From: an uncultured Bacteroidales bacterium
Lineage (GTDB): Bacteria; Bacteroidota; Bacteroidia; Bacteroidales; UBA1402
NCBI GenBank assembly: GCA_942493385.1
Contig: OW818699.1
Coordinates: forward strand, 1,686,808-1,750,807
Reading direction: 5' to 3'
DNA: 64,000 nucleotides
Shown here: one piece after another, positions 18,655 through 34,039 of the stretch
How positions within the stretch are numbered: the first letter of the stretch is position 1
Layout of the letters: each line of letters begins with the position of its first letter
The notes under the pieces: model-generated
What the model saw: the letters and a program-made list of their open reading frames with translations, nothing else
Told to the model about the DNA's origin: nothing
The model's database searches: none
Translations under genes and position numbers: made by a program

Positions 18655-19488
18655 TTATTCTTTCTTCATCATTCCTATCATATTCTTATAATTCTTGTTC
18701 AGGGTCGAGAGGTTACTGTTGAGTTCTTTCATTTGGTCGCGGTATTTCTTAGTTTCGACAGCCGATTCGGACATATCCTTGAGATATTCTTCCGCACCCT
18801 GTACCTGAACCCGATAAATGGAATTCAACGTATTCAAATTTTTGTTGAGCGATTCCAGCTCCATCTGATATTTTTTGGACTCTTCCTCAATCGAAGTCAG
18901 CGAACTGGCAATGCTTTGATATTTGAAGACCGTCTTGGATGTAACTCGCAGGATGGATGATTCATAAGCTTTGGCCAGTCGTTCTAGCGATTCATCGGCA
19001 ATTTCGATGGTTTTCATGTATTTGGTCGAAGCCGCAAAGACATCGCCCATCGTATTCATGTGTTCAGCCGTGTCACCAAGCTTTCGCAGGCCATCTCCGA
19101 AGCGAAGCAATAAATCGGGCGTAATGTCACCATTCATCAACATCTCGTCAAATTTGGCCAGCGCCAGGGATCCATTGCCATCATCCACCAGCTTGCTGTT
19201 CACCCGACGTGGTACAATTTCCTCCTCTTCATCATCAGCACTCAGGATTACGTTTGGATAAACCAAAGGCGGATGTTCATCATCCTGACTTTCAAAAGCG
19301 TAAAAGAAGAAAATGATGGCTTCCGTCACCAAGCCGGCAGTTAGCATGTAATCCGCTCCTGCCCAATGCTCCAATTTGAATAGGGCACCTAATACAACGA
19401 CAGATGCGCCAAAACCATACAGTTTTGTCATGGCAGCCTTAAAGCCCCTGGTCTGCGTCAATCGTTGTATTTGTGCATCTAAGCCCAT
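18655..19488 (-). CDS. gldL: GldL/PorL-like motor protein
   Basis: KLYGFGASVVVLGALFKLEHW and LTAGLVTEAIIFFFYAFE are the two N-terminal TM helices characteristic of GldL. A cytoplasmic coiled-coil-like tail follows. Confidence 0.85.
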   Translation of the reverse strand: MGLDAQIQRLTQTRGFKAAMTKLYGFGASVVVLGALFKLEHWAGADYMLTAGLVTEAIIFFFYAFESQDDEHPPLVYPNVILSADDEEEEIVPRRVNSKLVDDGNGSLALAKFDEMLMNGDITPDLLLRFGDGLRKLGDTAEHMNTMGDVFAASTKYMKTIEIADESLERLAKAYESSILRVTSKTVFKYQSIASSLTSIEEESKKYQMELESLNKNLNTLNSIYRVQVQGAEEYLKDMSESAVETKKYRDQMKELNSNLSTLNKNYKNMIGMMKKE

Positions 19489-19520: not shown

Positions 19521-21134
19521 TTACTTTATAGTAATGAAGAATGGTGGAAGATTCCGCTTATCATTTCCAGGTCCATTGACAATGATTTCTTCAAATAGTA
19601 GCACTTGTCCTCGATTCGTTCTCCGAATCTCCTGTATCATTTCATCCGTCAGATTATCGTTGGGTGAATCATAATTGTAGGTATTGAAACCACGATCCAT
19701 CGTCAACCTGAAACTTACGACCTGAAAAACGTAATTAAAATCAAAATCCACAGGCATCATCGGTACGATTTTTCCTGCCGAAAGGATATTTTCACGAGTA
19801 ACAAAGCCATCTTTTCTTCCGGAAATGGTAGGAGTCGGATCCGGTAGTTTCTTGATACGAAAAGTTTGCGTGCCTATCAACTTCAAACCATCATTCGACT
19901 TGATGGAAACCGATACGACCGCTTCTTTTGCTGTTGGTGGCACTATACAAATCCATCCGCTACTCTTAGGGTCCTGCTTGATAGTGCCGACAGATATGGT
20001 CGGAGAAAGGTTCTCCATCGGAATTCCAGTGATGGAAACGGACAGTGGATTTTCCACCCCAGCATAAAGTACGTTCATATTGGTGGGAGAAACCGTCACA
20101 ACAGGAGGTGCTACAAAATACTCCCCTTTGAAATGATAGGTCCGTTCACGTCCGGAAGCCGTAGGTACACTTACAAATCCAGCGTATTTTTGCATTCCTA
20201 AAGCAGTAGCTGGAAATTTGATATTTAATTTACCCTTATCCCTTGCTACGAGCGTAGCCTGGCCTTTTTGATCGACCGTCATGCTGTCCACTCCTTTCAT
20301 CAGGTATACGCTTGGACTTGGGGTGTGGCTGGTGTCATAAGCAGCCACAATCACTTCCGCTTCAAAATCATCACCCGTAAACAAATAATTAGTTTTTGGC
20401 AGCACCTTCGCTTCAATCCGGTCGTACTTGAAATCCTCGGCGATGCTTTCCCTAAGAAGTCCATTAACCACTTCCAATTCCGCATTGTTTACTTCCGAAA
20501 TCAATTTGTTCAGAATCGGAATATCGGCTGCCAGCGGAATATCATAGAAGTAATGGTGTTCCCAGCTTTGCAACTTGCCAAAAGCATCTTTGTATTTGTC
20601 CTTCGTGTCAAGACCCAATTGAATATCCTTCCTATTCGACGGATTGATCAGCTTCAAAATCTTTTCCCGATATGCACTTATCTTGTTTTTGAGTTCTCTT
20701 GCCTTACCCTTGGAGCCACTTTCCAAAGGTCCGATCATAATTTGCGTTGGTATCGTATAGTTATCCTTTTTCCGCAAATCTCTAATGCTCATTTTGCGGG
20801 CAGAATCCAAGGGTACCTTCTCTGTGACTGCAATTAATTCGTCTCGCATATTTGCGATGTAACTCACCATCTCGGTCGAAAGCTTCATGGCCACTTTTGC
20901 CTTATCCCAGAATGGACCGACCTCAATTTGGTTCATGGTGAACTCCTTCTGGAATTCTTCCACTGTCATTTTACGTTTATCCGGAAAACTTTCATTGGTT
21001 GAAAGCACGGTGTCATTCACCGTCGAGTAACCCTCCAGCACCTCTTTCGAAACATTCAGGGCCAGCATTGCCGTCAGCACGAGGTACATCATGCCAATGA
21101 GCTTTTGCCTGGGTGATTCTTTTTGGTGGGCCAT
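19521..21134 (-). CDS. gldM: GldM/PorM-like motor/periplasmic shaft protein
   Basis: The N-terminus SPRQKLIGMMYLVLTAMLALNVSKEVLEGY is the GldM signature TM region. Length is 537 aa. The GldM_C-like end reads ...LLFEEIIVNGPGNDKRNLPPFFITIK. Confidence 0.85.
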   Translation of the reverse strand: MAHQKESPRQKLIGMMYLVLTAMLALNVSKEVLEGYSTVNDTVLSTNESFPDKRKMTVEEFQKEFTMNQIEVGPFWDKAKVAMKLSTEMVSYIANMRDELIAVTEKVPLDSARKMSIRDLRKKDNYTIPTQIMIGPLESGSKGKARELKNKISAYREKILKLINPSNRKDIQLGLDTKDKYKDAFGKLQSWEHHYFYDIPLAADIPILNKLISEVNNAELEVVNGLLRESIAEDFKYDRIEAKVLPKTNYLFTGDDFEAEVIVAAYDTSHTPSPSVYLMKGVDSMTVDQKGQATLVARDKGKLNIKFPATALGMQKYAGFVSVPTASGRERTYHFKGEYFVAPPVVTVSPTNMNVLYAGVENPLSVSITGIPMENLSPTISVGTIKQDPKSSGWICIVPPTAKEAVVSVSIKSNDGLKLIGTQTFRIKKLPDPTPTISGRKDGFVTRENILSAGKIVPMMPVDFDFNYVFQVVSFRLTMDRGFNTYNYDSPNDNLTDEMIQEIRRTNRGQVLLFEEIIVNGPGNDKRNLPPFFITIK

Positions 21135-21325: not shown

Positions 21326-21793
21326 TTATTGTAACCTATAATTCAAAGTTACTGCATAGGTGCCCGGGTGTAACTGCGAAAAATCAGAAATGAAAACATT
21401 CTGAGTAAGGATGACTGTTTTATTGCTTGCATACCATATACCTGTAATTATTGATTGATAATAGGTAGCGACGGTAACTAACCCTGTGGTGGAGCCTGCC
21501 CAATTACCACTAGGCTGTGCTGCCTGAACGGTATAGGTCATGCCAGGTGGGACAGAGTTGGATAAAATATCGATGTTTCCAACAATACCATCGCCTAAAA
21601 ATGGCCATGAATATTTGACAGATTGTGACGTGTAAGCAACTATTGGGTTAGCTGGAGTAGCTCCTGCTGTTGATGTTTGAAGCGTATAAGCGTTGGGACT
21701 CAATGTCAAAGGGGTTAAGGAAATCCTGCTTTGTGCCCAAGTACTACCACCCAACAAGGTAATAAACAATAGAAAAAAACATCTTTTATTCAT
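21326..21793 (-). CDS. Small secreted pilin-like protein (post-usher position)
   Basis: Signal peptide ending TWAQ. The mature N-terminus has alternating hydrophobics (RISLTPLTL). The C-terminus HPGTYAVTLNYRLQ resembles the GxY...Y-x-Q end of chaperone-usher/SCPU-type subunits. Confidence 0.45.
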   Translation of the reverse strand: MNKRCFFLLFITLLGGSTWAQSRISLTPLTLSPNAYTLQTSTAGATPANPIVAYTSQSVKYSWPFLGDGIVGNIDILSNSVPPGMTYTVQAAQPSGNWAGSTTGLVTVATYYQSIITGIWYASNKTVILTQNVFISDFSQLHPGTYAVTLNYRLQ

Positions 21794-21799
21794 AATCGG

Positions 21800-24424
21800 T
21801 CACTTTTTAATTAGATTATTCTGGAATTGAATTTGTCTTGCTTTCTTTTGAATGACGACATCAATTTTTTCGTGTTTCCCGGAAGTCAAATCAATGGTGA
21901 AATTACTATTTAAAAGTTTATAACCCAAAGGTATTCCATTAGGATATATTTTTATTTGCCATTTGTCTGGTCGTAAGTCATCAAAACGGAACGTACCTTC
22001 CTTGTTAGTATAAATTCGGTAAATATCCTTGCCGTTGCTTGCTTCCACAATGAGCTTTTCAATGGTTTCCTTGACTGGAATGTAGCCCTTTTGATTGGCA
22101 CGTTCATCTTCTTGAACCATTATTCGTCCTGAAATACTGCCCGAAGATGTTAAGGCACATTCAAACAACGTCACTTTGCTGGGTTCTACAAGAATCTTGA
22201 ATGGGCCTGGCGTTTCCGTTATCGTATTCAACCCCATGGAGGAAGCATCGATGTTCATCAGGTACTCTCCTACAGGAATTGCTGGAAACTTGAAATTGCC
22301 ATCTTTATCGGTAATGCAAATATTTCCGTTCAGATTCAACAAAAGCCCACCAACCTTTTCCACTCCATGATTGATGATCTTGCCGCTCACACTCCCAATA
22401 TTTTTCTTTTTAGCTATGGGCATGTTCAAATTGTGAACATAGCGCAATTGAACGTTGTATTCTTTTTTGTCAAGGGTGTTTTTAACTAGGTTGTAGTTGG
22501 CTGTCAGGTTTATTTCGTTGTTGTCGTTAATTCGTCCGAAAAGGTTCATCGAGAACAAACTTCTGTCTGAGGTATAGTAACGCCACTCATAATTACTGTT
22601 GTATTGCAGTGATAACGATAGGCGGTCCTTCATATTGGCAATAAATGAACCACCATAATAAAACTGATCAAAACCTGTCACATTTTTTTGCCCACCCTGA
22701 TAGGTGGAGAATGCACTGGCTGAAAAACTTTTATTGAATATGTAGAACATGGTAAAAGTACTGTTGTAGAACAACGACTCATCCACTACTATTCCGGGTA
22801 GATGATTTTGCATTTTTCCAACATCGGCAATCAGTGCCAGGTTGAACGACTTTAATTTGCTTTGAAGGGATATTCTACCACTTGTTTTGTCGTAATCAAA
22901 CAAAGGTGTTGGTGATTGGTCTTCTAAGCTAACCATATTGCCTGCCAAGGATAAGGTATTTTGCTGTGAAATTCTATAACTGGCAGTCATATTGATGTTT
23001 TTGCTGTGGGGCATGTTGGCATACAACGTATCCAATGCCATATTGGTGCTGTTTACGTCGTAATTGACCGAAAGTGAAAACTTCTTCAACTGAATGGCGG
23101 ACCCGACATTCATACGAAGGCTGTTGGTAACGAATCCAGGAAAATTGGGTTCTGCAAACAGGTATACCAAATGCGTGCTGAATTTGGGGATATTGAGATT
23201 TATGGTTGCCTTGTAAGCTTTTGTTAATTTTGAAGTGGCTTGTCCCATTGCCAGTTCTGCTTCCGTGCTGATAATGGAGAAAAGATTGTTGTGTGCAGAA
23301 ATCGTATACAATTGCGTGCGATTGTTCAATGTATCCGATTTCGTTAGGAATCCGGCCGACAATCCGTTCCTGGGGTCGAAATTGAACGATGAATAGGCCG
23401 CTGCCACTTGTTTGATTAGTGGATAATAACGTGGTACATTGTAGTAGGTCCCAATGGTCCATTTGTTCAAACGATACCGCAGTTCAAGCCCACGTCCGTT
23501 TCTGGAGGACTCTGTCAATTCACTTAATCCGAAATTATAGTCTCCTACAGCTGTAAAAAATTTTGAGGTACGAAATTTGAGATAATACTCATCATTCAAG
23601 CCAAATAATGGATTACCCGTTCTATCGGGACCGCGCAGGTGAAAATCAACGTTGGTATCCCCTTTTTTCCCAATCGCACCTGTACCCTGAATGTCGTACA
23701 TGCTACTTATCATTTGATTGCCCAACCGATTGCTGGCTGCAAAAATTCCAGATATTTTGATAGGAAAGCGTTCGTATTTGTCAAACTTGACCGCTTCAGA
23801 TGGAAATATGTCGTACGAAGAATACACTGAAGATTCTGTCTCCGGCTTGTCAACTACTTGCGCTATCAAAATGACCGATTGTTGCGTATGACCGTCAACT
23901 TTTTTTGCCGTTTTCGAATGAAAAGTTGTTACAATACCAGAATCCTTTGGAATGGAGAATTCTTCAATCTTACTTTCGGATCCCCTGAGTGTAGTCGTCT
24001 TTATTTTTACATCCAAATTGGAGAAATTCTGAATGAGATAACTTATGTTCACCTCATCACCTGAAAATATATACGAAGGAGATTTCAATTTTGTAATTGA
24101 AATCTCATATTTTGGCCTTACTTGAATGGGTATGTCAATTTTTCCGAACGGAATGTGACCAGGCAACTCCAACACTTCAACAGACAGATTAAAGTCACCG
24201 GCACGGATACTCTGTGATATTTGTATACCGATAACTTTTTTTAGACTGGAATTCTTTTCGATCTTGATGGATGAATAATCCGCAATCAACTTGCCGTTCA
24301 CTTCGTTGTTGCTAAACTTGATTTGAGCTTCTTTATCTTCGTTCGTAGGATTGTTGATCACTACAAGCATGTTGATGGTAGCGCCCGGTTCAACTTCTTT
24401 TTTTTGTGGTGAAAGTACCTTCAA
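21800..24424 (-). CDS. Outer-membrane beta-barrel protein with periplasmic beta-sandwich domains (usher-like); 5' end requires a frameshift to reach the ATG at 24501
   Basis: The track ORF starts at a TTG. The frame stays open 37 more codons upstream and encodes ...NRFNCFFLIVLRSSALA. Two N-terminal Ig/CARDB-like repeats cover about aa 1-215. A central ~470 aa has an amphipathic beta-strand pattern (LRYRLNKWTIGTYYN, SLSLQYNSNYEWRYY). Two C-terminal CarboxypepD_reg-like domains follow (GSVSGKIINHG...DKDGNFKF and GSISGRIMVQ...NKEGTFRFDDL). Confidence 0.5.
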   Translation of the reverse strand: MKVLSPQKKEVEPGATINMLVVINNPTNEDKEAQIKFSNNEVNGKLIADYSSIKIEKNSSLKKVIGIQISQSIRAGDFNLSVEVLELPGHIPFGKIDIPIQVRPKYEISITKLKSPSYIFSGDEVNISYLIQNFSNLDVKIKTTTLRGSESKIEEFSIPKDSGIVTTFHSKTAKKVDGHTQQSVILIAQVVDKPETESSVYSSYDIFPSEAVKFDKYERFPIKISGIFAASNRLGNQMISSMYDIQGTGAIGKKGDTNVDFHLRGPDRTGNPLFGLNDEYYLKFRTSKFFTAVGDYNFGLSELTESSRNGRGLELRYRLNKWTIGTYYNVPRYYPLIKQVAAAYSSFNFDPRNGLSAGFLTKSDTLNNRTQLYTISAHNNLFSIISTEAELAMGQATSKLTKAYKATINLNIPKFSTHLVYLFAEPNFPGFVTNSLRMNVGSAIQLKKFSLSVNYDVNSTNMALDTLYANMPHSKNINMTASYRISQQNTLSLAGNMVSLEDQSPTPLFDYDKTSGRISLQSKLKSFNLALIADVGKMQNHLPGIVVDESLFYNSTFTMFYIFNKSFSASAFSTYQGGQKNVTGFDQFYYGGSFIANMKDRLSLSLQYNSNYEWRYYTSDRSLFSMNLFGRINDNNEINLTANYNLVKNTLDKKEYNVQLRYVHNLNMPIAKKKNIGSVSGKIINHGVEKVGGLLLNLNGNICITDKDGNFKFPAIPVGEYLMNIDASSMGLNTITETPGPFKILVEPSKVTLFECALTSSGSISGRIMVQEDERANQKGYIPVKETIEKLIVEASNGKDIYRIYTNKEGTFRFDDLRPDKWQIKIYPNGIPLGYKLLNSNFTIDLTSGKHEKIDVVIQKKARQIQFQNNLIKK

Positions 24425-24470
24425 CTCCAGTTTACTATCAATAGCCAGAGCGGAAGAACGTAATACTATT

Positions 24471-24479
24471 AAAAAAAAA
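24471..24479 (-). repeat. T9 homopolymer (minus strand), either a -1 slippery site or an indel-prone tract at the usher-like gene 5' end
   Basis: The minus strand reads ATG TTT CGA ATC GTT TCA ATT GTT TTT TTT TAA. A -1 shift, or one extra T, joins MFRIVSIVFF to LIVLRSSALAIDSK... in the main frame. Confidence 0.6.
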
Positions 24480-24532
24480 CAATTGAAACGATTCGAAACA
24501 TCTATCAGGTTTTTGACAATCTGCGCCTCACC

Positions 24533-25333
24533 CTAAAAATAAAGTGTATATTCCAATCCAAATACATCATCATCCGCACCAGCGGCAACGATCATGGCCG
24601 TATATGTTTTTTTGGATGGAACACCCTCTAAGTCCAACTTGAATCGGGCTGAAGTGGTTGGATATAAACCACGTTTGGGTGCTGTAATTTTTTTAACCAA
24701 AATGCCGTCTTGATCATATAGTTCAATGCTGACTTCAGGAGCGATGTAGTGTTGACCTTCGTTCAACAAGTCGATGGCTAGGTAAAGTTTCTTGCCTTCT
24801 TCGGCTTTTATAAGGGTAGGATCCATGAACTTGAGTTTTCCTGTACCCCTATTGTTGATTTCATTGACTACTTGAACCGCATATCTTGTTGCAGTCCGAA
24901 TACTTAAGTCACCCTTCTGATTCGGGTCAATAGGATCAACACCTTCAACCATGATGACGCTCCAGTAAGAGCCAATGATGGAGTCGCCTTTTGGAACTGT
25001 TATTTCATATTCAACATTACGTGATTCCTTGCTTTTTAAGACGACAGTTCTTGGACTATATTGTATCCAACTGGCATTGGATCGTTTTTGTCCACCAGGT
25101 TCATCGTAAAAGGTTTGTTCTTGAAAGTTGAATAGGAAATCTGTTTGGTAGATTCTAACTTCCTGATCGGCGGCATCATTATTTTGAATCTTAATTTGTC
25201 CCTTGACAACATCACCGGGATTGGTATTGTATACTTGCTTTAAACTTCCAATAACTTCGACGGATGCCATTAAACCTACGGGAAGTAAAAATAAGTAGCA
25301 AATAAACAGGATAAGCTTTTTGTTTAGCATCAT
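24533..25333 (-). CDS. Periplasmic two-beta-sandwich protein (chaperone-like, PapD/DUF916-like pattern)
   Basis: Signal peptide (LLPVGLMA). The segments VVKGQIKIQNNDAADQEVRIY and YSPRTVVLKSKESRNVEYEITVP...SYWSVIMVEG resemble the Ig-like chaperone pattern. It lies immediately upstream of the barrel gene. The fold is not verified. Confidence 0.4.
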   Translation of the reverse strand: MMLNKKLILFICYLFLLPVGLMASVEVIGSLKQVYNTNPGDVVKGQIKIQNNDAADQEVRIYQTDFLFNFQEQTFYDEPGGQKRSNASWIQYSPRTVVLKSKESRNVEYEITVPKGDSIIGSYWSVIMVEGVDPIDPNQKGDLSIRTATRYAVQVVNEINNRGTGKLKFMDPTLIKAEEGKKLYLAIDLLNEGQHYIAPEVSIELYDQDGILVKKITAPKRGLYPTTSARFKLDLEGVPSKKTYTAMIVAAGADDDVFGLEYTLYF

Positions 25334-25515: not shown

Positions 25516-26094
25516 CTATTGAACTGCCGTCAATGTAAAAGTGACAACAATTTGTGCACCAGTGGTGGCTCGTAGTGTTCCATACGTGGCTGGATTGACA
25601 TCCAACGCATAACTGAACTTCAATGGGTATCCGTCTGCTGCTCCCTTACCTGAATAACAGGATGCGATATTGGTAATAATCGGCCTGTCTGTACCATCCA
25701 AAGTTGTCGGAGCAATAAAGACTCCTGTTTCACCTGCAAAATTGGAGTTTGGTTGTAAAACCGAAAGTTCAAGATGGGTGCCTGGAGGTACGGTTCCTGC
25801 TGTAATCTTTGCCGAAAGTGTTCGAGTCATTGAAGAGGAGATCACAGAAGACATCAAGAGTCTGGCTGTAGAGTCAGATGCGCTTACTTCAACGGAAAGC
25901 CCGGCATCTTGCTGGTTTAATTGCAAATTGATGAGGTCGGCACTTGTTTTTACCAACGAGACTTCCGTAATTCCCAGCGTAATGGTCGTAGACGAAGAAT
26001 TGGTTGCGCTCGTAGAACCCTCCTGGGCGAAAACTCTATAACTGTTTAACAACAGTGCGCAAAATATTCCAATGATCGATAGCTTTTTATACAT
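25516..26094 (-). CDS. Secreted pilin-like paralogue P1
   Basis: Signal peptide ...RVFAQ. Family motifs are RLLMSS, TRTLSAKI, SCYSGKGAADGY and the C-terminal IVVTFTLTAVQ. Its ATG overlaps the upstream gene's stop (ATGTATAA). Confidence 0.5.
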   Translation of the reverse strand: MYKKLSIIGIFCALLLNSYRVFAQEGSTSATNSSSTTITLGITEVSLVKTSADLINLQLNQQDAGLSVEVSASDSTARLLMSSVISSSMTRTLSAKITAGTVPPGTHLELSVLQPNSNFAGETGVFIAPTTLDGTDRPIITNIASCYSGKGAADGYPLKFSYALDVNPATYGTLRATTGAQIVVTFTLTAVQ

Positions 26095-26650
26095 TGGTAT
26101 CGGATGCTACAGTGGAAATGGTATAAGTAACAATAATAGTTGCACTTCTAAGGATTGGCGCGTTTGGGATGGCCTTGTAAACGTATCGGATAACATAACC
26201 GTCATCCTCCGTTTTTCCCGACCAACAGGTTCCAATTCCTTCTGCAAGAGTTACTTCCGTTTCGTTCGAAAGTAGTTTTTCGCCCGTAAGAGAACCTCGA
26301 TTTTCTGGATAAACAAAATTACCGTTAGGTTCCTTCAATTCTACATGAAGTGTAGTGCCAACCAATGCCTCCGAAATTTTGGCGGTGATGGCTCTCGTTT
26401 CGCCGTTATTTACAAGTGACGAAATCCTTAATCGAGACTTGTCATTCTCGGCAGCTTGTTGAATCGCATCACCAGCCTCAACAGCACCCGCCAATATCAA
26501 CTTGACGGGTGGCCCTGCTACAGCCAGTAAAGCAGACCCAGCTACTTGGAGGTCAATGGATTGTGTAACAACCCTTGTGTCCTGAGCATAGACTGATAAG
26601 GGCATCAGCAATAAGGAAAGACCTATAAAATATACAAATACCCTTTTCAT
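26087..26650 (-). CDS. Secreted pilin-like paralogue P2
   Basis: Start taken at the ATG at 26650 (MKRVFVYFIGLSLLLMPLSVYAQ); the track begins at a TTG at 26671. Motifs are RLRISS, TRAITAKI, TCWSGKTEDDGY and IIVTYTIS. Confidence 0.5.
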   Translation of the reverse strand: MKRVFVYFIGLSLLLMPLSVYAQDTRVVTQSIDLQVAGSALLAVAGPPVKLILAGAVEAGDAIQQAAENDKSRLRISSLVNNGETRAITAKISEALVGTTLHVELKEPNGNFVYPENRGSLTGEKLLSNETEVTLAEGIGTCWSGKTEDDGYVIRYVYKAIPNAPILRSATIIVTYTISTVASDTNV

Positions 26651-26727
26651 AGTCGATATCATATCATACAATGTCTCTCAAACCTTAAAAGGTTCTAAAG
26701 ACATTTGAAAAAAAATTAACAACGAAA

Positions 26728-27324
26728 TTATACCGCTGCTGTGATCGTGTATGTAATGACTATGTTTTGACTTTGCATGAAGGTCGCATCGGCTTTTTTG
26801 GCATATCTATATGTTACAGTATAACCATCATTGTCACCCATGCCCGACCAGCAAGTTGTTATGTCAGAAACTATCGTCTTGCTCGAACCATCTGTCAATT
26901 CTTGTTCTGTAGCAGGTGTACCACCATTGGCTACTGCTGGAAGAAAACTTTCTGGTTTGGTGAGTGAAACGAAAAATTGGGTACCTGTATTTGTGATTGC
27001 AGGGGAAATGCTTGCAGTAATAGTCCTCGTTTTTCCACTCTCAACCAGGGAAGATATCCTAAGTCTCGTGTCCGAATTGCTGGCCTGATCCATGACGGCC
27101 GCACCAGCTTGTGTTGCTCCGGACAAGGACATCGAAACAGCTGTGGAAGTACCAGCATTAATGTTTGTATTGAAAACAGCCAACAATGCGGAGCCATTTA
27201 CTTGAAGGGCGATGTTCTGTGAGACATCAGCGCCGGAATTCCCTGGGTTTTGTGCCGTCGCGATCATAGGCAAAGTAGTGCCGATAAGTAAAGCGATGCA
27301 TTTTAATAACGATGTTTTTTTCAT
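26728..27324 (-). CDS. Secreted pilin-like paralogue P3
   Basis: 198 aa with signal peptide ...IATAQ. Motifs are RLRISS, TRTITASI, TCWSGMGDNDGY and NIVITYTITAAV. Confidence 0.5.
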   Translation of the reverse strand: MKKTSLLKCIALLIGTTLPMIATAQNPGNSGADVSQNIALQVNGSALLAVFNTNINAGTSTAVSMSLSGATQAGAAVMDQASNSDTRLRISSLVESGKTRTITASISPAITNTGTQFFVSLTKPESFLPAVANGGTPATEQELTDGSSKTIVSDITTCWSGMGDNDGYTVTYRYAKKADATFMQSQNIVITYTITAAV

Positions 27325-27409
27325 TTTATTGAATGTTTTAGCTTTTGGATGTTTCTCAGTTTATATCAACGACTTTGTAATGAGCAAAAGATAAGCCGAG
27401 ACTTCCAAA

Positions 27410-28006
27410 TTATACTTCGGCAGTAATTGTATAGGTGATGACGATGTTCTGACTTTGTAGGAAAGTAGCATCAACTTTCTTGGCATAACGGTAAGTGACA
27501 ACGTAACCATCCGTTGCACCTGTACCTGACCAGCAGGTTGTAATGGCAGAAACGACAGTCTTGGTTGTTCCGTCAGTCAGTTCTTGTTCAGCTGCAGCAG
27601 TTCCACCATTGGCAGCAACAGGTTGAAAGGTTCCGGGTCTTGTCAGTGCAACAAAAAACTGTGTTCCAGAAGTTGTAATTGCTGGAGCGATGGCTGCAGT
27701 AATGGTTCTGGTCTTGCCGCTTTCAACAAGTGACGAAATTCTAAGTCTGGTGTCAGCGTTTGTGGTTTGATCCAAAATGGCCGCACCAGCTTGTGTGGCA
27801 CCGGTCAATGACATGGAAACAGCCGTAGAAGTTCCTGCATCGGCATTGGTGTTTACAACCGCCAATAGAGCAGACCCGTCTACTTTAAGTGTAATATCCT
27901 GTGTAACAGTTGCAGCAGATCCGCCGGGATTTTGAGCGGAAGCGAAGAGGGGCATGGCTAAACAAGTCAATAATGCGATGCTTTTGACCAATGAAGACTT
28001 TTTCAT
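27410..28006 (-). CDS. Secreted pilin-like paralogue P4 (candidate major subunit)
   Basis: 198 aa with 146/198 identical positions to P3 by ungapped hand alignment. It follows a 312-bp regulatory gap that has its own -7 box. Confidence 0.5.
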   Translation of the reverse strand: MKKSSLVKSIALLTCLAMPLFASAQNPGGSAATVTQDITLKVDGSALLAVVNTNADAGTSTAVSMSLTGATQAGAAILDQTTNADTRLRISSLVESGKTRTITAAIAPAITTSGTQFFVALTRPGTFQPVAANGGTAAAEQELTDGTTKTVVSAITTCWSGTGATDGYVVTYRYAKKVDATFLQSQNIVITYTITAEV

Positions 28007-28057
28007 AATTTTTGTGTATTAAAATGATTGAAATTTGAGTTGCTATTTTATGGTTTA

Positions 28058-28065
28058 CAAAGATA
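28058..28065 (-). promoter_or_regulatory. -7 box TATCTTTG upstream of P4
   Basis: The minus-strand sequence matches TAnnTTTG, 52 nt upstream of the ATG at 28006. Confidence 0.35.
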
Positions 28066-28079
28066 GGTCAGAAAAACAG

Positions 28080-28106
28080 TTATGTACACTAGGTTTCCGT
28101 ACATAA
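28080..28106. promoter_or_regulatory. 8-bp perfect inverted repeat TTATGTAC-N11-GTACATAA
   Basis: Read directly. It overlaps the expected -33 region of the P4 promoter. On the minus strand it is followed by ACTGTTTTTC, so an operator or a weak terminator are both possible. Confidence 0.3.
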
Positions 28107-28318
28107 AAGATACGAAGTACCATTCTTTAAGGATACAAAGAGGAAACATGTTCCTAAGCATATCACTAGGCAAACCTAAATCATTTTTAGCAATGACAAC
28201 CATGGTATTTGCCTGATTATACTTCAGGATTACAGATATTTAGTATCAGTAAAATCCTTAGAAAAGACTTCCTCTTTTAAGAAGTTAAAAGTAGTCAAAA
28301 ATATTAACAGTCAGATAA

Positions 28319-28891
28319 TCAATTGCTTGTTATCGTGTATGTGACTGTTATCGGTGCATTGGCTATCGCTCTAAGTAGAGCATAGTTCGCTGGATCAACA
28401 CTCCAGTAGTAGGTGAGGTTGAACCCATTTGTTGACGAAGATCCGGTATACCCACTGCCAATGCTGTTTATAAGCGTTGTGTTGATATTCTTGAGCAAAG
28501 TGATCTGGCCCGATGGTGTTCCGCGGTTACCAGAACCTGAAGAAGAGCTAGACGCAGTCAGTTTGAGGAGCGTACCGGCAGGTACAAATCCGCTAGTGAC
28601 GGATGCCATGATCCTTCGAGTTTGGTTGGCTGGAGCAATGGATGTTAATTGCAAGTAAGATGCATTATTTGTTTTTGGAGAAGTTGTTTCCCCTGCAACT
28701 GAGGCCAATAAGTTCATACTGATTGTAGTCAAAGGATTAATTCGGATAAGGCTCACATCATTGATGGTTATAGTGAACACATTAGTAGTATAGACCTGAG
28801 CAGTTGCTTTTCCGTACAAGACCAGTGAAAGAACGATAAACAAAAGATACTTCCACCTATAGGTTGAATTTCGAATGGTGGTGTTATTCAT
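28319..28891 (-). CDS. Secreted pilin-like paralogue P5 (divergent, Cys-less motif)
   Basis: Signal peptide ...GKATAQ. Motifs are TRRIMASV, GSGYTGSSSTNGF and PITVTYTITSN. Its ATG overlaps the P6 stop (ATGAATAA). Confidence 0.45.
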   Translation of the reverse strand: MNNTTIRNSTYRWKYLLFIVLSLVLYGKATAQVYTTNVFTITINDVSLIRINPLTTISMNLLASVAGETTSPKTNNASYLQLTSIAPANQTRRIMASVTSGFVPAGTLLKLTASSSSSGSGNRGTPSGQITLLKNINTTLINSIGSGYTGSSSTNGFNLTYYWSVDPANYALLRAIANAPITVTYTITSN

Positions 28892-29453
28892 CTGAATTGA
28901 TTGTATAAATTACACGAATACGTAAATTGGCAAGTAGTTCGCTTTGAATGTAATCCGGATCATAGCCCGGTTTGAGTTCCCATGAAAAAGTTAGCAAGTG
29001 CCCTTTGTTATCTCCTTGGCCAGTGTAACAAGATCCAATATCTGTGATGATTGCCTGAGGTGCCGTAGATAAATAGATGGGAATGGCCGGTTTCCCAACT
29101 TGCCCGTAACCGGCACCGATATCTGGTCCGACTTTCAGCTTAATGGCGATTTCAGCAGGTAAGTCGCCTGAAGCAAGGCTTGCACAAATCGTATTGGTTG
29201 AATTGCTTACGATGACAGAGGAATAATTAATCCAAATCGTATCCACGGTCGATGGCGCTAGTTTCCGATCTTTGCCTTCGCCAGTGAAAAGAGAGAACTT
29301 GAGTTCGGAAGATCCCATGCTCAACTTGGCGCTTGGTGGTATGGCCATTTGGACCGGCAATTTGCCAGTGTTGTCGTTCTCTTGAGCTTGCAGGCGGAAG
29401 TCTGCAACAATCAAAAGCAATGTGAACATAAATACGTTGTACGTCATTCTCAT
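28884..29453 (-). CDS. Secreted pilin-like paralogue P6 (divergent)
   Basis: Start taken at the ATG at 29453 (MRMTYNVFMFTLLLIVADFRLQAQ), preceded by AAGGAGG-caag; the track begins at a TTG at 29474. Motifs are SCYTGQGDNKGH and RIRVIYTINSDE. Confidence 0.45.
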   Translation of the reverse strand: MRMTYNVFMFTLLLIVADFRLQAQENDNTGKLPVQMAIPPSAKLSMGSSELKFSLFTGEGKDRKLAPSTVDTIWINYSSVIVSNSTNTICASLASGDLPAEIAIKLKVGPDIGAGYGQVGKPAIPIYLSTAPQAIITDIGSCYTGQGDNKGHLLTFSWELKPGYDPDYIQSELLANLRIRVIYTINSDE

Positions 29454-29463
29454 CTTGCCTCCT

Positions 29464-30096
29464 TTAATATACAATGCCTTGCTTCATAGCATACTTGACC
29501 AGTTGGGCTAAGTTGTCAAACCCCATTTTGTCAAAGATGTTCTGTTTGTGTGTTCCAACCGTCTTAATGCTGATATAAAGAGATTCGGAAACTTCACGTA
29601 CAGATCTACCCTCAGCCAAAAGCCCTAGTATTTGTGTTTCCCGTTTTGTCAAAGTGGCAGATAAATTGGTGTTCCTTCCAAGGTATTCATCGATGATAAT
29701 GCTTTCAACATCCATACCCACTGCCTTTTTTCCATTATTTATTTGCCTGATGCCGTTCAATAAGTGTTCGAAAGTGCAGTTCTTCAAGTAATATCCATGA
29801 ACACCGGCTGTCAACGCTCCTTTAATATGTATTTTTTCAGAATGTGATGTTAATGCAATTATTTTGCAATTTGGGTGCTCCATCAGGATCATCTGAGTTG
29901 TTTCAATGCCCTTCAACCGAGGTAGACATATATCCATGATTACCATATTCGGTCGCTTTTCTTTTACCCTTGAAAGAACTTCAACCTGATCCTCTGCTTC
30001 TCCGATGGCTTCAATATCGTCGGTTTCGCTGAATCTGTAGGCAAGAAGTTCCCTGAACAACTTATTATCATCTGCAAGTAAAACAGATATCTTCAT
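29464..30096 (-). CDS. Response regulator, NarL/FixJ (LuxR-type HTH) family, no adjacent kinase
   Basis: Receiver domain (LLADDN..., MVIMDICLP, KIIALTSH) plus a C-terminal LuxR HTH (LTKRETQILGLLAEGRSVREVSESLYISIKTVGTHKQNIF). Confidence 0.85.
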   Translation of the reverse strand: MKISVLLADDNKLFRELLAYRFSETDDIEAIGEAEDQVEVLSRVKEKRPNMVIMDICLPRLKGIETTQMILMEHPNCKIIALTSHSEKIHIKGALTAGVHGYYLKNCTFEHLLNGIRQINNGKKAVGMDVESIIIDEYLGRNTNLSATLTKRETQILGLLAEGRSVREVSESLYISIKTVGTHKQNIFDKMGFDNLAQLVKYAMKQGIVY

Positions 30097-30374: not shown

Positions 30375-31358
30375 ATGGAAGTCAATTTCTTGTCAAATTC
30401 GACCAAGGTTAGGCAGATGGCGGAAGCCATTCGTATGGCCATCTCGCAAGGGGAATTCTCGGAGGGTGAGATGCTACCGTCCATCAATCAGATCAGTTCG
30501 AAATACAATGTGGCCCGCGATACGGCTTTCAAGGCATTTCAGGAATTGAAGCTGAAGGGAGTCATCGAATCGGCACCTACGAAAGGGTATTATGTATCGT
30601 CTTCAGTCAATAACATTCTGGTTTTGCTGGATATTTTCAGCCCCTATAAGAACGACCTTTACAATGCCCTGACCAAGAATCTGGGACCCCACAACCGGCT
30701 GGACCTGTATTTCCACCATTACAATGAGGCGCATTTCAACAACGTCATCATGAACAGTTTGGGCAAGTACAACCGGTACCTCATCATGAATCTTAAGAAC
30801 GACGTTTATTCTACGGTGCTTGACAACATTGACAAGAGTCGCATCCTGCTGCTGGACTTTGGGAAGTTCAACAAGGACGGTTTTGCGTATGTGTGCCAAG
30901 GTTTCGATACGACCTTGTATGAATGCCTGCAATCGGGAGTGGAGCTTTTCAGAAAATACAAGAAACTGAATTTTATATTTCCGTTGGATTCTGAGCATCC
31001 CAGAGGCGGTATTCAGTACTATGAGCAGTTCTGCAAGGAAAATCATATTAAGAGCAATCTGGTGAAGCGGCATGTGCAGGAATCGGATTTGGTGAAGGGA
31101 GAGGCCAACCTCATCGTTTCGCACGGGGATCTCATCGAGGCCATCAAAATTTGTAAGAACAATGGCTGGAAATTGGGGGAAGACATTGGGATAGTGACTT
31201 TCAACGATGCGCCCATGTTGGAAGTCATTGAAAACGGCATCACGTCCATTTCGGTGGATTTCAAGCAAATGGGGGCGCTGGCTGCCCGTTTCATCAACAA
31301 CAACGAACGCCTGCAAACGTATGTGCCGACCAAGCTCATCGTTCGCGGCTCGCTTTAA
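30375..31358 (+). CDS. GntR-type HTH / periplasmic-binding-protein (LacI-like sugar-binding) hybrid transcriptional regulator
   Basis: N-terminal GntR wHTH (LPSINQISSKYNVARDTAFKAFQELKLKGVIESAPTKGYYV). The ~250-aa C-terminal domain has the PBP type I pattern. Confidence 0.65.
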   Translation: MEVNFLSNSTKVRQMAEAIRMAISQGEFSEGEMLPSINQISSKYNVARDTAFKAFQELKLKGVIESAPTKGYYVSSSVNNILVLLDIFSPYKNDLYNALTKNLGPHNRLDLYFHHYNEAHFNNVIMNSLGKYNRYLIMNLKNDVYSTVLDNIDKSRILLLDFGKFNKDGFAYVCQGFDTTLYECLQSGVELFRKYKKLNFIFPLDSEHPRGGIQYYEQFCKENHIKSNLVKRHVQESDLVKGEANLIVSHGDLIEAIKICKNNGWKLGEDIGIVTFNDAPMLEVIENGITSISVDFKQMGALAARFINNNERLQTYVPTKLIVRGSL

Positions 31359-32347: not shown

Positions 32348-34039
32348 ATGAAAAACATTAAGAATCTTTTAGCATCAATCTGCTTGTTAGGTGCCGCCTC
32401 GTTTGCATATGCACAGTATCCAACCATACCCAAAGAGGTTCAGGCTGTATCCGATTCCATGATGGCCGGTTTCCGCCAAGCATCCGATTCTGCATGGGCC
32501 GTTGCATTACCCATCATTGAGAAGGAAGCCCTGGAGGGTCGTCCTTATATTCCGTGGGCCAACCGCCCCTACGATTTGCCCCAGGCTGAAATTCCTTCCT
32601 TCCCAGGTGCCGAAGGCGGGGGTTCATTCTCCTACGGTGGCCGGGGTGGCAAAGTTTTGGTTGTAACCAATCTGAACGACGCTGGGCCAGGATCCTTGCG
32701 TTGGGCTTGCGAACAAGGTGGTGCCCGCATCGTCGTGTTCAACGTTTCTGGTACCATTCATTTGAAGACACCGATATCCGTTCGTGCACCTTATATTACT
32801 ATTGCAGGACAAACTGCTCCTGGTGACGGTATTTGTGTGGCAAGCGAAAGCTTCTGGGTTGACACGCACGACGTGGTGGTTCGCCACATGCGTTTCCGCC
32901 GCGGTATCACCACCGTAGGTCGTCGCGACGACAGTTTTGGTGGCAATCCGGTGGGTAACATCATGTTGGACCACATTTCCGCCACTTGGGGATGCGACGA
33001 AAATATTTCCTTCTACCGCCACATGTTCAACGATGGCAACGGTGGCATCGACAAAAAGTTGGCCACCGTCAACGTAACCATCCAGAATTCCATTTCGGCA
33101 GAATGCTTGGATACTTGGAACCATTCGTTCGGCAGTACCCTGGGTGGGGAAAATACGACCTTCCTTCGCAACTTATATGCTTGTAATGCCGGCCGAAACC
33201 CATCTGTGGGCTGGAATGGTGTTTTTAATTTCACCAACAATGTCGTGTTCAATTGGGTACATCGCAGCATGGACGGTGGCGACTATACCGCCATGTTCAA
33301 CCTCATCAACAACTATTACAAGCCAGGGCCTCTAACCCCTAAGCAAGGACCCTTGTCACACCGTTTGGTCAAACCCGAATCCGGACGCAGCAATGTGAAG
33401 AAGAAAACTTACGGTCGCGTTTATGCCAATGGAAACATCATGGAAGGAAATGCTGCAGTAACCAAAGACAATTGGGACGGTGGTGTGCAAGTGGAAGATG
33501 AAGAAAATGCCGGCGAATACACCCAATCCATGAAAGTGACCAGACCTTTCCCCATGCCAGCTGTAACTATTATGCCTGCTCAAAAGGCCTTTGGTTTTGT
33601 GATGGACAATTGCGGTGCAACCTATCCCAGAAGAGACGTAGTGGACACCCGAATCGTGAAAAATACACGCACTGGTGTCATTCAGGTGAAGGAAAACGTC
33701 AATTTGGACGAAATTCCAAAGTTTAAATACCGTCGTTTGCCGGTGGATTCGTACAAGCAAGGCATCATCACGGACATCAGCCAAGTTGGTGGTTGGCCGG
33801 AACTGAAAGGTACGCCCCGCAGCGACCGCGACAAGGATGGCATGCCGGACAGCTGGGAAACCAAATACGGTCTGAATCCTGACAATGCGGCCGATGCCAT
33901 TGCCGACTGCAACGGGGACGGTTACACCAACATCGAAAAGTACATCAATGGGATGAATCCGAAAAAGAAAATTGACTGGACCAATGCGAAGAATAATTTC
34001 GACACGTTGGCAAAGAAAAAAGGAGACCTTTCTGAATGA
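32348..34039 (+). CDS. Pectate lyase, PL1-like, with C-terminal Ca-binding (thrombospondin-3/dockerin-like) repeats
   Basis: Signal peptide. Contains AEGGGSFSYGGRGGKVLVVTNLNDAGPGSLRWA...ITIAGQTAPGDGI and the repeat DKDGMPDSWETKYGLNP...DCNGDGYTNIEKY. No T9SS sorting domain. Confidence 0.7.
   Translation: MKNIKNLLASICLLGAASFAYAQYPTIPKEVQAVSDSMMAGFRQASDSAWAVALPIIEKEALEGRPYIPWANRPYDLPQAEIPSFPGAEGGGSFSYGGRGGKVLVVTNLNDAGPGSLRWACEQGGARIVVFNVSGTIHLKTPISVRAPYITIAGQTAPGDGICVASESFWVDTHDVVVRHMRFRRGITTVGRRDDSFGGNPVGNIMLDHISATWGCDENISFYRHMFNDGNGGIDKKLATVNVTIQNSISAECLDTWNHSFGSTLGGENTTFLRNLYACNAGRNPSVGWNGVFNFTNNVVFNWVHRSMDGGDYTAMFNLINNYYKPGPLTPKQGPLSHRLVKPESGRSNVKKKTYGRVYANGNIMEGNAAVTKDNWDGGVQVEDEENAGEYTQSMKVTRPFPMPAVTIMPAQKAFGFVMDNCGATYPRRDVVDTRIVKNTRTGVIQVKENVNLDEIPKFKYRRLPVDSYKQGIITDISQVGGWPELKGTPRSDRDKDGMPDSWETKYGLNPDNAADAIADCNGDGYTNIEKYINGMNPKKKIDWTNAKNNFDTLAKKKGDLSE

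Follow-up and report, generated by a model that had tools for sequence, protein, structure and literature searches.

A multi-phylum gene cluster with a predicted usher-like protein encodes candidate surface-fibre subunits and is linked to GldLM homologues in Bacteroidota

The window analysed here is a stretch of 64,000 nucleotides (nt) from an uncultured Bacteroidales bacterium (contig OW818699.1, positions 1,686,808 to 1,750,807), and our subject is a cluster on its minus strand in which six paralogous genes for small secreted proteins are followed by genes for a 266-residue periplasmic protein, a large protein with a predicted usher-like fold, a seventh small secreted protein, and homologues of GldM and GldL. 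The six small proteins (subunits A to F) are encoded by tandem open reading frames (ORFs) of 190–198 amino acids that can be aligned over their full length. Subunit A (29474..28884) has 196 residues when read from a TTG start, and the first in-frame ATG, at 29453, is its likely start. The start of subunit B (28891..28319, 190 residues) shares 8 nt with A; between B and subunit C (28006..27410, 198 residues) lies the largest gap among the subunit genes, 312 nt. Subunit D (27324..26728, 198 residues) is a recent duplicate of C and is identical to database protein P0001. Subunit E (26671..26087, 194 residues) has its likely start at M8, which gives 187 residues, and database protein P0003 (187 residues, same contig) is probably the product of this gene. 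Subunit F (26094..25516, 192 residues) overlaps E by 8 nt. A sequence-only reading of this DNA had taken the six for paralogues, and they are: every pairwise phmmer comparison among them gives E ≤ 4e-5 (C versus D, 1e-91), and with C as the reference, D is 74% identical, E 41%, F 29%, B 25% and A 20%.

The motif blocks listed in that reading are all visible in the alignment of the six proteins and are kept across their relatives, as scored over an alignment of 412 non-redundant family members. A variable Gly/Ser/Thr/Asn-rich linker separates the signal peptide from an h-x-h-x-h strand (columns 38–42), the three h positions of which are 100% hydrophobic. There follow the blocks [WRY]-L-x-[YI]-S-S (columns 87–92), T-R-x-I-x-A-x-I (columns 99–106) and C-[YW]-[TS]-G-x-G-x-x-x-G-[YH] (columns 158–168; Cys 84%, G161 96%, G167 99%), and finally the C-terminal I-x-V-T-Y-T-I block (columns 188–194), in which T193 is invariant. 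The single conserved Cys is without a partner Cys for an intramolecular disulfide, and the alignment agrees with the earlier statement that it is missing from the B-type protein. The signal peptides are those of signal peptidase I substrates, lack a lipobox Cys, and end in A-x-A before a Gln (A 69%, Q 86% family-wide). The A-Q ending that had been offered as a shared feature of the six is thus present, but we reject it as a family signature because Gln at this position is accounted for by the Q-rule, a general trait of signal peptidase I substrates in Bacteroidetes (PMC5837995).

The subunit family is broad, with 199 matches in a 90%-clustered database and 1,386 representatives in a 50%-clustered library, and the members listed are of uniform length, mostly 180–200 residues. 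Almost every named member bears the label 'hypothetical protein'; where an organism is given, the source is a metagenome-assembled genome (MAG) of Bacteroidota. [quoted passage not shown] The proposed membership of the SCPU/Csu, DUF4402 or Fimbrial families therefore finds no support in any of the 124, and the suggested comparison of profiles with pilins fared no better: hhalign against E. coli components returned probabilities of only 0.4% for the subunit with FimA, 0.3% for the 266-residue protein with FimC and 1.7% for the usher-like protein with FimD. Homology of the subunits to a non-fibre family, which had been named as an argument against fibres, was likewise not found. A Protein Data Bank (PDB) sequence search with the subunit family profile found nothing, and profile searches of the PDB for the 266-residue and usher-like families found nothing relevant. 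The subunits have no match to Por_Secre_tail or another T9SS sorting domain, the mature proteins being single domains of ~170 residues, and none to the FimA or Mfa Pfam families of type V pili.

The 266-residue protein, whose gene (25333..24533) lies downstream of subunit F, carries a signal peptide and is the putative chaperone of the cluster. Among its 417 homologues the best 120 are 64–94% identical, and none of these 120 has a Pfam assignment; the corresponding range among the window's subunits is 20–74%. Assembly machinery is usually more conserved than exposed subunits, and the far stronger conservation of the 266-residue protein fits such a division. Pfam scans of the protein and its orthologues gave no PapD match. 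They did give sub-threshold matches to WxLIP_PGBD (DUF916), in 71 of 86 close orthologues (best E 5e-5) and 15 of 26 distant ones, and in two of the 26 the C-terminal half also matched WxLIP_HBD (DUF3324), in the correct PGBD-HBD order; none of these matches reaches the Pfam gathering score. Together with matches to fn3_5 they imply that the protein has two immunoglobulin (Ig)-like domains. It contains the invariant segment ...LSIRTATRYAVQVV... and ends ...GLEYTLYF.

In Gram-positive bacteria the WxL proteins have a two-Ig-domain partner, WxLIP, and the donation of a strand to a partner is how a PapD-type chaperone works. AlphaFold2 work by others predicts that the WxL sandwich is completed by a strand from WxLIP (PMC10599100), a further point of likeness if the 266-residue protein acts as a chaperone here. 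The WxL/Csc clusters resemble the present one in other respects, in that the small WxL proteins are single domains of ~180 residues directly after the signal peptide and occur several to a cluster. There are also differences. The 266-residue protein lacks the C-terminal transmembrane helix of WxLIP, the subunits have no WxL-domain match (their C-terminal [YF]-T-[IL] merely resembles the second W-x-L motif of that domain), WxL clusters have no outer-membrane component, and no LPXTG analogue is found here. WxL clusters are, moreover, almost confined to Firmicutes (PMC9772566).

The gene for the large protein (24501..21800) is frameshifted in the window, where the ORF as called encodes 874 residues (24424..21800); its orthologues have 897–901 residues and a signal peptide. 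An AlphaFold2 model (mean predicted local distance difference test score, pLDDT, 87.4) consists of two N-terminal sandwiches, a region of ~28 long strands (residues 199–691) and two C-terminal sandwiches, and so reproduces at the level of fold the domain order of an usher, with its N-terminal domain, large barrel and two C-terminal sandwiches. When this model was compared with known structures using Foldseek, the top nine matches were all FimD (E 8e-15 to 7e-12, over 740–810 aligned columns), and PapC scored 1e-9, all of them well ahead of TonB-dependent receptors (~5e-7) and LptD (1e-6). The modelled protein is thus usher-like in fold. Ranks 10–19 are strong matches to ciliary central-apparatus proteins, which probably owe their scores to the Ig-like domains at the N-terminus, and not to the barrel. 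By DSSP the modelled barrel has about 24–28 strands. The most conserved stretch of the protein, residues ~265–320 of the mature form (…HLRGPDRxGNPLFGLNDEYYL…LGDxNYGLSxLTESSRxGRG…), falls within the barrel, in a part with short DSSP strands, and may be a gate or plug-like element.

The sequence families of classical ushers are not recovered with this protein. The Usher family (PF00577, with PapC_N and PapC_C) gave no match to the window protein and is not one of the 25 most-matched families of 49 orthologues, for which Pfam reports mainly C-terminal domains of the CarboxypepD_reg type. The one related signal is a weak match to CooC_C, the C-terminal domain of an alternate-pathway usher, in seven of the 49. 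In distant orthologues the N-terminal domains have sub-threshold matches to Motile_Sperm, ASH and HYDIN-type Ig families, which we take to share a Pfam clan with PapD_N. The ~200 N-terminal residues of the usher-like protein also align with the 266-residue protein (hhalign probability 73%, E 3e-5), so that, to judge from their profiles, the 266-residue protein (24533–25333) and the two N-terminal domains of its neighbour (23840–24442) appear to be paralogous. We know of no classical usher that is paralogous to its own chaperone.

The frameshift lies among the signal-peptide codons of the usher-like gene, where one base is missing at or next to the T-run 24471–24479. The ATG at 24501 reads MFRIVSIVFF and then a stop, and one added base would restore MFRIVSIVFFLIVLRSSALA followed by IDSK...; the missing base is the reason that the annotated ORF begins without a signal peptide. 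The intact orthologue in locus L066 reads GCT TTT TTT TTA where the window reads G-T TTT TTT TTA. The loss may be a sequencing error, a mutation that makes a pseudogene, or slipped-strand switching. We considered a phase-variable poly-T tract and set it aside, the comparison with L066 making a one-base loss or a base-calling error as likely.

We surveyed the wider distribution of the cluster by scanning one genome per species with the 266-residue family and mapping the surrounding ORFs with profile hidden Markov models (HMMs), which yielded 65 loci with this family. Throughout Bacteroidota the gene order is one to seven subunits, the 266-residue gene, the usher-like gene and usually one further subunit. 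The chaperone-like/usher-like pair, flanked by small ORFs, is also found in MAGs labelled as Planctomycetota, Deltaproteobacteria/Thermodesulfobacteriota, Spirochaetota, Ignavibacteria, Gemmatimonadota, Zixibacteria, Armatimonadota and Gammaproteobacteria. The small ORFs in these distant loci still have the h-x-h-x-h strand at the N-terminus and the T-[IV]-T-[YFL]-T-[IL] strand at the C-terminus, and most of them match the family HMM. The largest array, in the Bacteroidales MAG locus L033 (4189–14059), has seven subunit genes before the chaperone-like gene and one after the usher-like gene. Longer usher-like proteins (1,013–1,342 residues) occur in L023, L024, L032 and several loci outside Bacteroidota.

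The paralogues hold fixed positions in these arrays. The A-type is always first (subunit A matches the family HMM at 7e-66, and its positional orthologues, at 32–61% identity, occupy the first place in most loci), the B-type is second, and the F-type always closes the array ahead of the chaperone-like gene; after the usher-like gene comes an A-like one. The C, D and E types are limited to the closest relatives of the window locus. In the window, the post-usher position is taken by a 155-residue secreted protein, subunit G (21793..21326). The family profile detects this ORF weakly by itself (hhalign probability 9.6%), and phmmer relates it to subunit F at 7e-5. Its orthologues are the post-usher genes of L001 (51% identity), L002, L004 and L006, and E-values of 1e-8 to 1e-5 connect it to post-usher genes with family-HMM matches at 1e-13 to 1e-26; as the orthologue of the post-usher gene it is a seventh, divergent member of the family. 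The sequence-only reading had proposed one major and several minor or adaptor subunits, and the recurrence of the same paralogue types at the same places across loci fits specialised subunits of this kind. The fixed order A, B, optional C/D/E, F, chaperone-like, usher-like, G points to a single major subunit accompanied by adaptor, tip or terminator subunits.

An AlphaFold2 monomer model of mature subunit C, built from a 124-sequence alignment, is all-beta with seven DSSP strands (pLDDT 91.6, predicted template modelling score 0.84). The model shows no regular secondary structure in its N-terminal 20 residues, where the conserved DITLKV strand lies. The best Foldseek matches of the model in the PDB are almost all subunits of donor-strand fibres, namely CanA, CfaB, SafA, CS17, PapE and FimG, with the cannula proteins of Pyrodictium and Hyperthermus at the top (probability 0.92–0.97 for the first two, 0.84 for CanA, 7uii). 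As evidence for a fibre subunit, these modelled neighbourhoods are suggestive, not proof. Several strand pairings emerged from mean-field direct coupling analysis of 412 sequences; couplings of the N-terminal strand are weak and not decisive, the best being with the next strand, as in a hairpin, and none clear with the C-terminal strand.

That the best matches are cannula subunits raises the possibility that the small proteins are matrix proteins like TasA and CanA, which would assemble themselves extracellularly and with no chaperone, the 266-residue and ~900-residue proteins being only an export route or an anchor. TasA-superfamily fibres (CanA/CanX, AbpA, TasA) are systems of archaea or monoderm bacteria, with subunits of similar size to those described here and an N-terminal donor strand. 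Cannula subunits belong to this superfamily, and donor-strand complementation is how they polymerise, with no chaperone (10.1101/2024.12.30.630787), and the superfamily as a whole is assembled without chaperone or usher. The subunits have no sequence similarity to these proteins, as is reflected in the lack of a Peptidase_M73/TasA match in any of the 124 members, and the TM-scores are just 0.33–0.42, below 0.45 throughout. No signal-peptidase gene adjoins or lies inside the cluster, and the tight linkage to the 266-residue protein across several phyla argues for a dedicated periplasmic partner. We consider self-assembly of this kind improbable.

A second alternative is that the usher-like barrel exports the subunits singly, to form a surface coat or to act as monomeric adhesins or binding proteins, with no polymerisation. 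The monomer model of the subunit is confident and compact, its N-terminal strand couples with the neighbouring strand, and the only sequence relatives of the 266-residue protein are WxLIP domains; for Gram-positive WxL clusters a non-filamentous cell-surface complex has been proposed in place of pili (PMC9772566, PMC10599100). Set against this are the absence of a WxL-domain match from all 124 family members, the top structural neighbours of the subunit, which are fibre subunits, and the fixed positional types of paralogue, which are typical of ordered fibres. The usher fold, to our knowledge, has so far been seen solely in fibre assembly (FimD, PapC, Caf1A, CsuD), and this too speaks against export of single subunits, which we regard as unlikely overall.

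The reading that we favour, with moderate confidence, is that the six small proteins and the seventh are structural components of a surface fibre whose assembly follows a deeply divergent pathway of the chaperone-usher type, in which the 266-residue protein would be a periplasmic partner that donates a strand and the ~900-residue protein the platform for assembly at the outer membrane. The paralogy of the subunits, the breadth of their family, the synteny across phyla and the linkage to GldLM in Bacteroidota are observed directly; from these and from the modelled usher-like fold we infer that the 266-residue protein is a chaperone, that the subunits polymerise, that strand exchange is the mechanism and that individual paralogues have distinct roles. 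The earlier idea of a chaperone-usher-like fibre is thereby upheld in part: the operon architecture, the FimD/PapC-like fold and the fibre subunits among the Foldseek neighbours support it, but membership of SCPU, DUF4402 or Fimbrial is not supported. The cluster lies outside every sequence-defined chaperone-usher family, and its architecture and usher fold are chaperone-usher-like.

Assembly may proceed as follows. The subunits would leave the cytoplasm through Sec, and signal peptidase I would cut them so that an N-terminal Gln remains, as the Q-rule predicts; they would then be held in the periplasm by the two-domain 266-residue protein, whose closest known relative is WxLIP. Hand-over to the ~900-residue FimD-like outer-membrane protein would lead to translocation and polymerisation. 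The likeliest contacts between subunits would be the N-terminal h-x-h-x-h and the C-terminal T-Y-T-I strands, through donor-strand or edge-strand complementation.

Several observations weigh against this reading. Neither Pfam scans nor hhalign detected sequence-level homology to chaperone-usher components for any part of the cluster. The structural matches of the subunit are weak (E ~1e-2 and none at E ≤ 1e-3, in addition to the low TM-scores), and since the monomer model is confident, the predicted subunit fold may be self-sufficient. The DSSP string of the usher-like model has no obvious plug domain or inserted sandwich. The homologues all come from uncultured MAGs, and the frameshift in the usher-like gene means that the system may be inactive in the genome from which the window is taken, unless the base call is wrong.

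Comparison with the chaperone-usher pili themselves (classical Fim/Pap, alternate CFA/I-CS1 and archaic Csu/CupE) shows how far the likeness extends. Common to both are paralogous subunits of ~150–190 residues, a periplasmic protein of ~265 residues and an outer-membrane protein of ~900 residues whose predicted fold and domain order are here closest to FimD and PapC; subunits with an alternating-hydrophobic N-terminal strand and a C-terminal strand with an aromatic residue; and a NarL/LuxR-type regulator upstream. The cluster differs in that its components have no detected sequence homology to those of the pili, that its usher-like protein has two Ig-like domains at the N-terminus that appear homologous to the putative chaperone and two CarboxypepD_reg-type domains at the C-terminus, and that the predicted subunit fold is weakly pilin-like. 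The barrel of a classical usher has 24 strands and an internal plug, whereas the ~24–28-stranded model has no evident plug. The taxonomic range is also different, covering Bacteroidota, Planctomycetota, Spirochaetota, Ignavibacteria, Gemmatimonadota and others, and in Bacteroidota the cluster is linked to the GldLM motor. Our full-text literature searches found no description of the cluster or of a GldLM-linked usher-like system. CryoSeek TLP-1 and the Microcystis CT pili were compared and are different systems.

The link to GldLM is evident in the window itself. Directly after the seventh subunit lies a gene for a 537-residue GldM/PorM homologue (21134..19521) that has the four GldM Pfam domains and matches PorM (7cmg) over its full length at E 1e-57, and this is followed by a gene for a 277-residue GldL/PorL homologue (19488..18655; Pfam GldL_N 2e-23; GldL, 7sau, E 2e-35). 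The N-terminal Arg of GldM (PRQK) and the glutamate of 'LVTEA' in the second transmembrane helix of GldL are both kept. GldM directly follows the post-usher subunit in ~30 Bacteroidota loci, the window included, and is in turn followed by GldL in at least 12. As in the T9SS/gliding GldLM (PorLM) modules, both homologues are full-length with the key Arg and Glu, but the canonical order gldK-L-M-N is reversed to M then L, no gldK or gldN adjoins the pair in the window, and the subunits are without a T9SS C-terminal domain. Given the reversed order and the absence of adjacent gldK and gldN, the pair looks like a dedicated paralogue, to go by its gene neighbourhood. GldLM is absent from the loci outside Bacteroidota, where the downstream genes examined (L041, L042) are unrelated.

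A proton-driven inner-membrane motor pair conserved beside a barrel gene in Bacteroidota would also be compatible with energised uptake, in which the barrel is a gated transporter powered by GldLM, in the manner of ExbBD-TonB, and the small proteins are surface or periplasmic binding proteins. TonB-dependent receptors do appear as second-tier Foldseek matches of the usher-like protein. The usher matches, however, are better by ~7 orders of magnitude and cover the flanking domains as well, and neither a TonB box nor a plug Pfam domain was found in the usher-like protein and its orthologues. Other phyla have the cluster without GldLM, and six to eight paralogous binding proteins in a fixed order would be unusual. 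We judge uptake to be highly improbable.

If the cluster instead assembles a fibre, as we favour, the motor may act on it. The GldM arm, which spans the periplasm, could engage the periplasmic domains of the usher-like or the chaperone-like protein, and extrusion, rotation or retraction of the fibre could then be energised by GldL-GldM. We know of no chaperone-usher pilus that is energised; assembly of the known ones needs no inner-membrane energy source. We put forward only tentatively, and with more doubt than belief, that the Bacteroidota system would be the first fibre machine of the chaperone-usher type to be mechanically coupled to a proton-driven rotary motor, and that its core would be an ancient, multi-phylum sister of the chaperone-usher pili and the WxL clusters.

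At the other end, the first gene of the cluster encodes a response regulator of the LuxR/NarL type (29464..30096, minus strand; Pfam Response_reg 5e-23, GerE 4e-17), with the FimZ model among its NCBIfam matches. Its orthologues are found directly upstream of subunit genes in ~22 Bacteroidota loci. Beyond it, on the plus strand, a run of large same-strand ORFs (563–1114 residues) at 32348–62603, after a GntR/LacI-type regulator at 30375–31358, looks like a polysaccharide-utilisation region.

Chaperone-usher pili count as essentially proteobacterial and as free of any energy need at the outer membrane, and are defined by the Usher, PapD and pilin families. The cluster described here, the components of which are currently all annotated 'hypothetical protein', suggests that many other diderm phyla possess the same architecture in a form that sequence profiles do not see. 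It may form a link in evolution to the Gram-positive WxL clusters, which are poorly understood, and, in Bacteroidota, the GldLM rotary motor may have in it a second client besides type 9 secretion and gliding.

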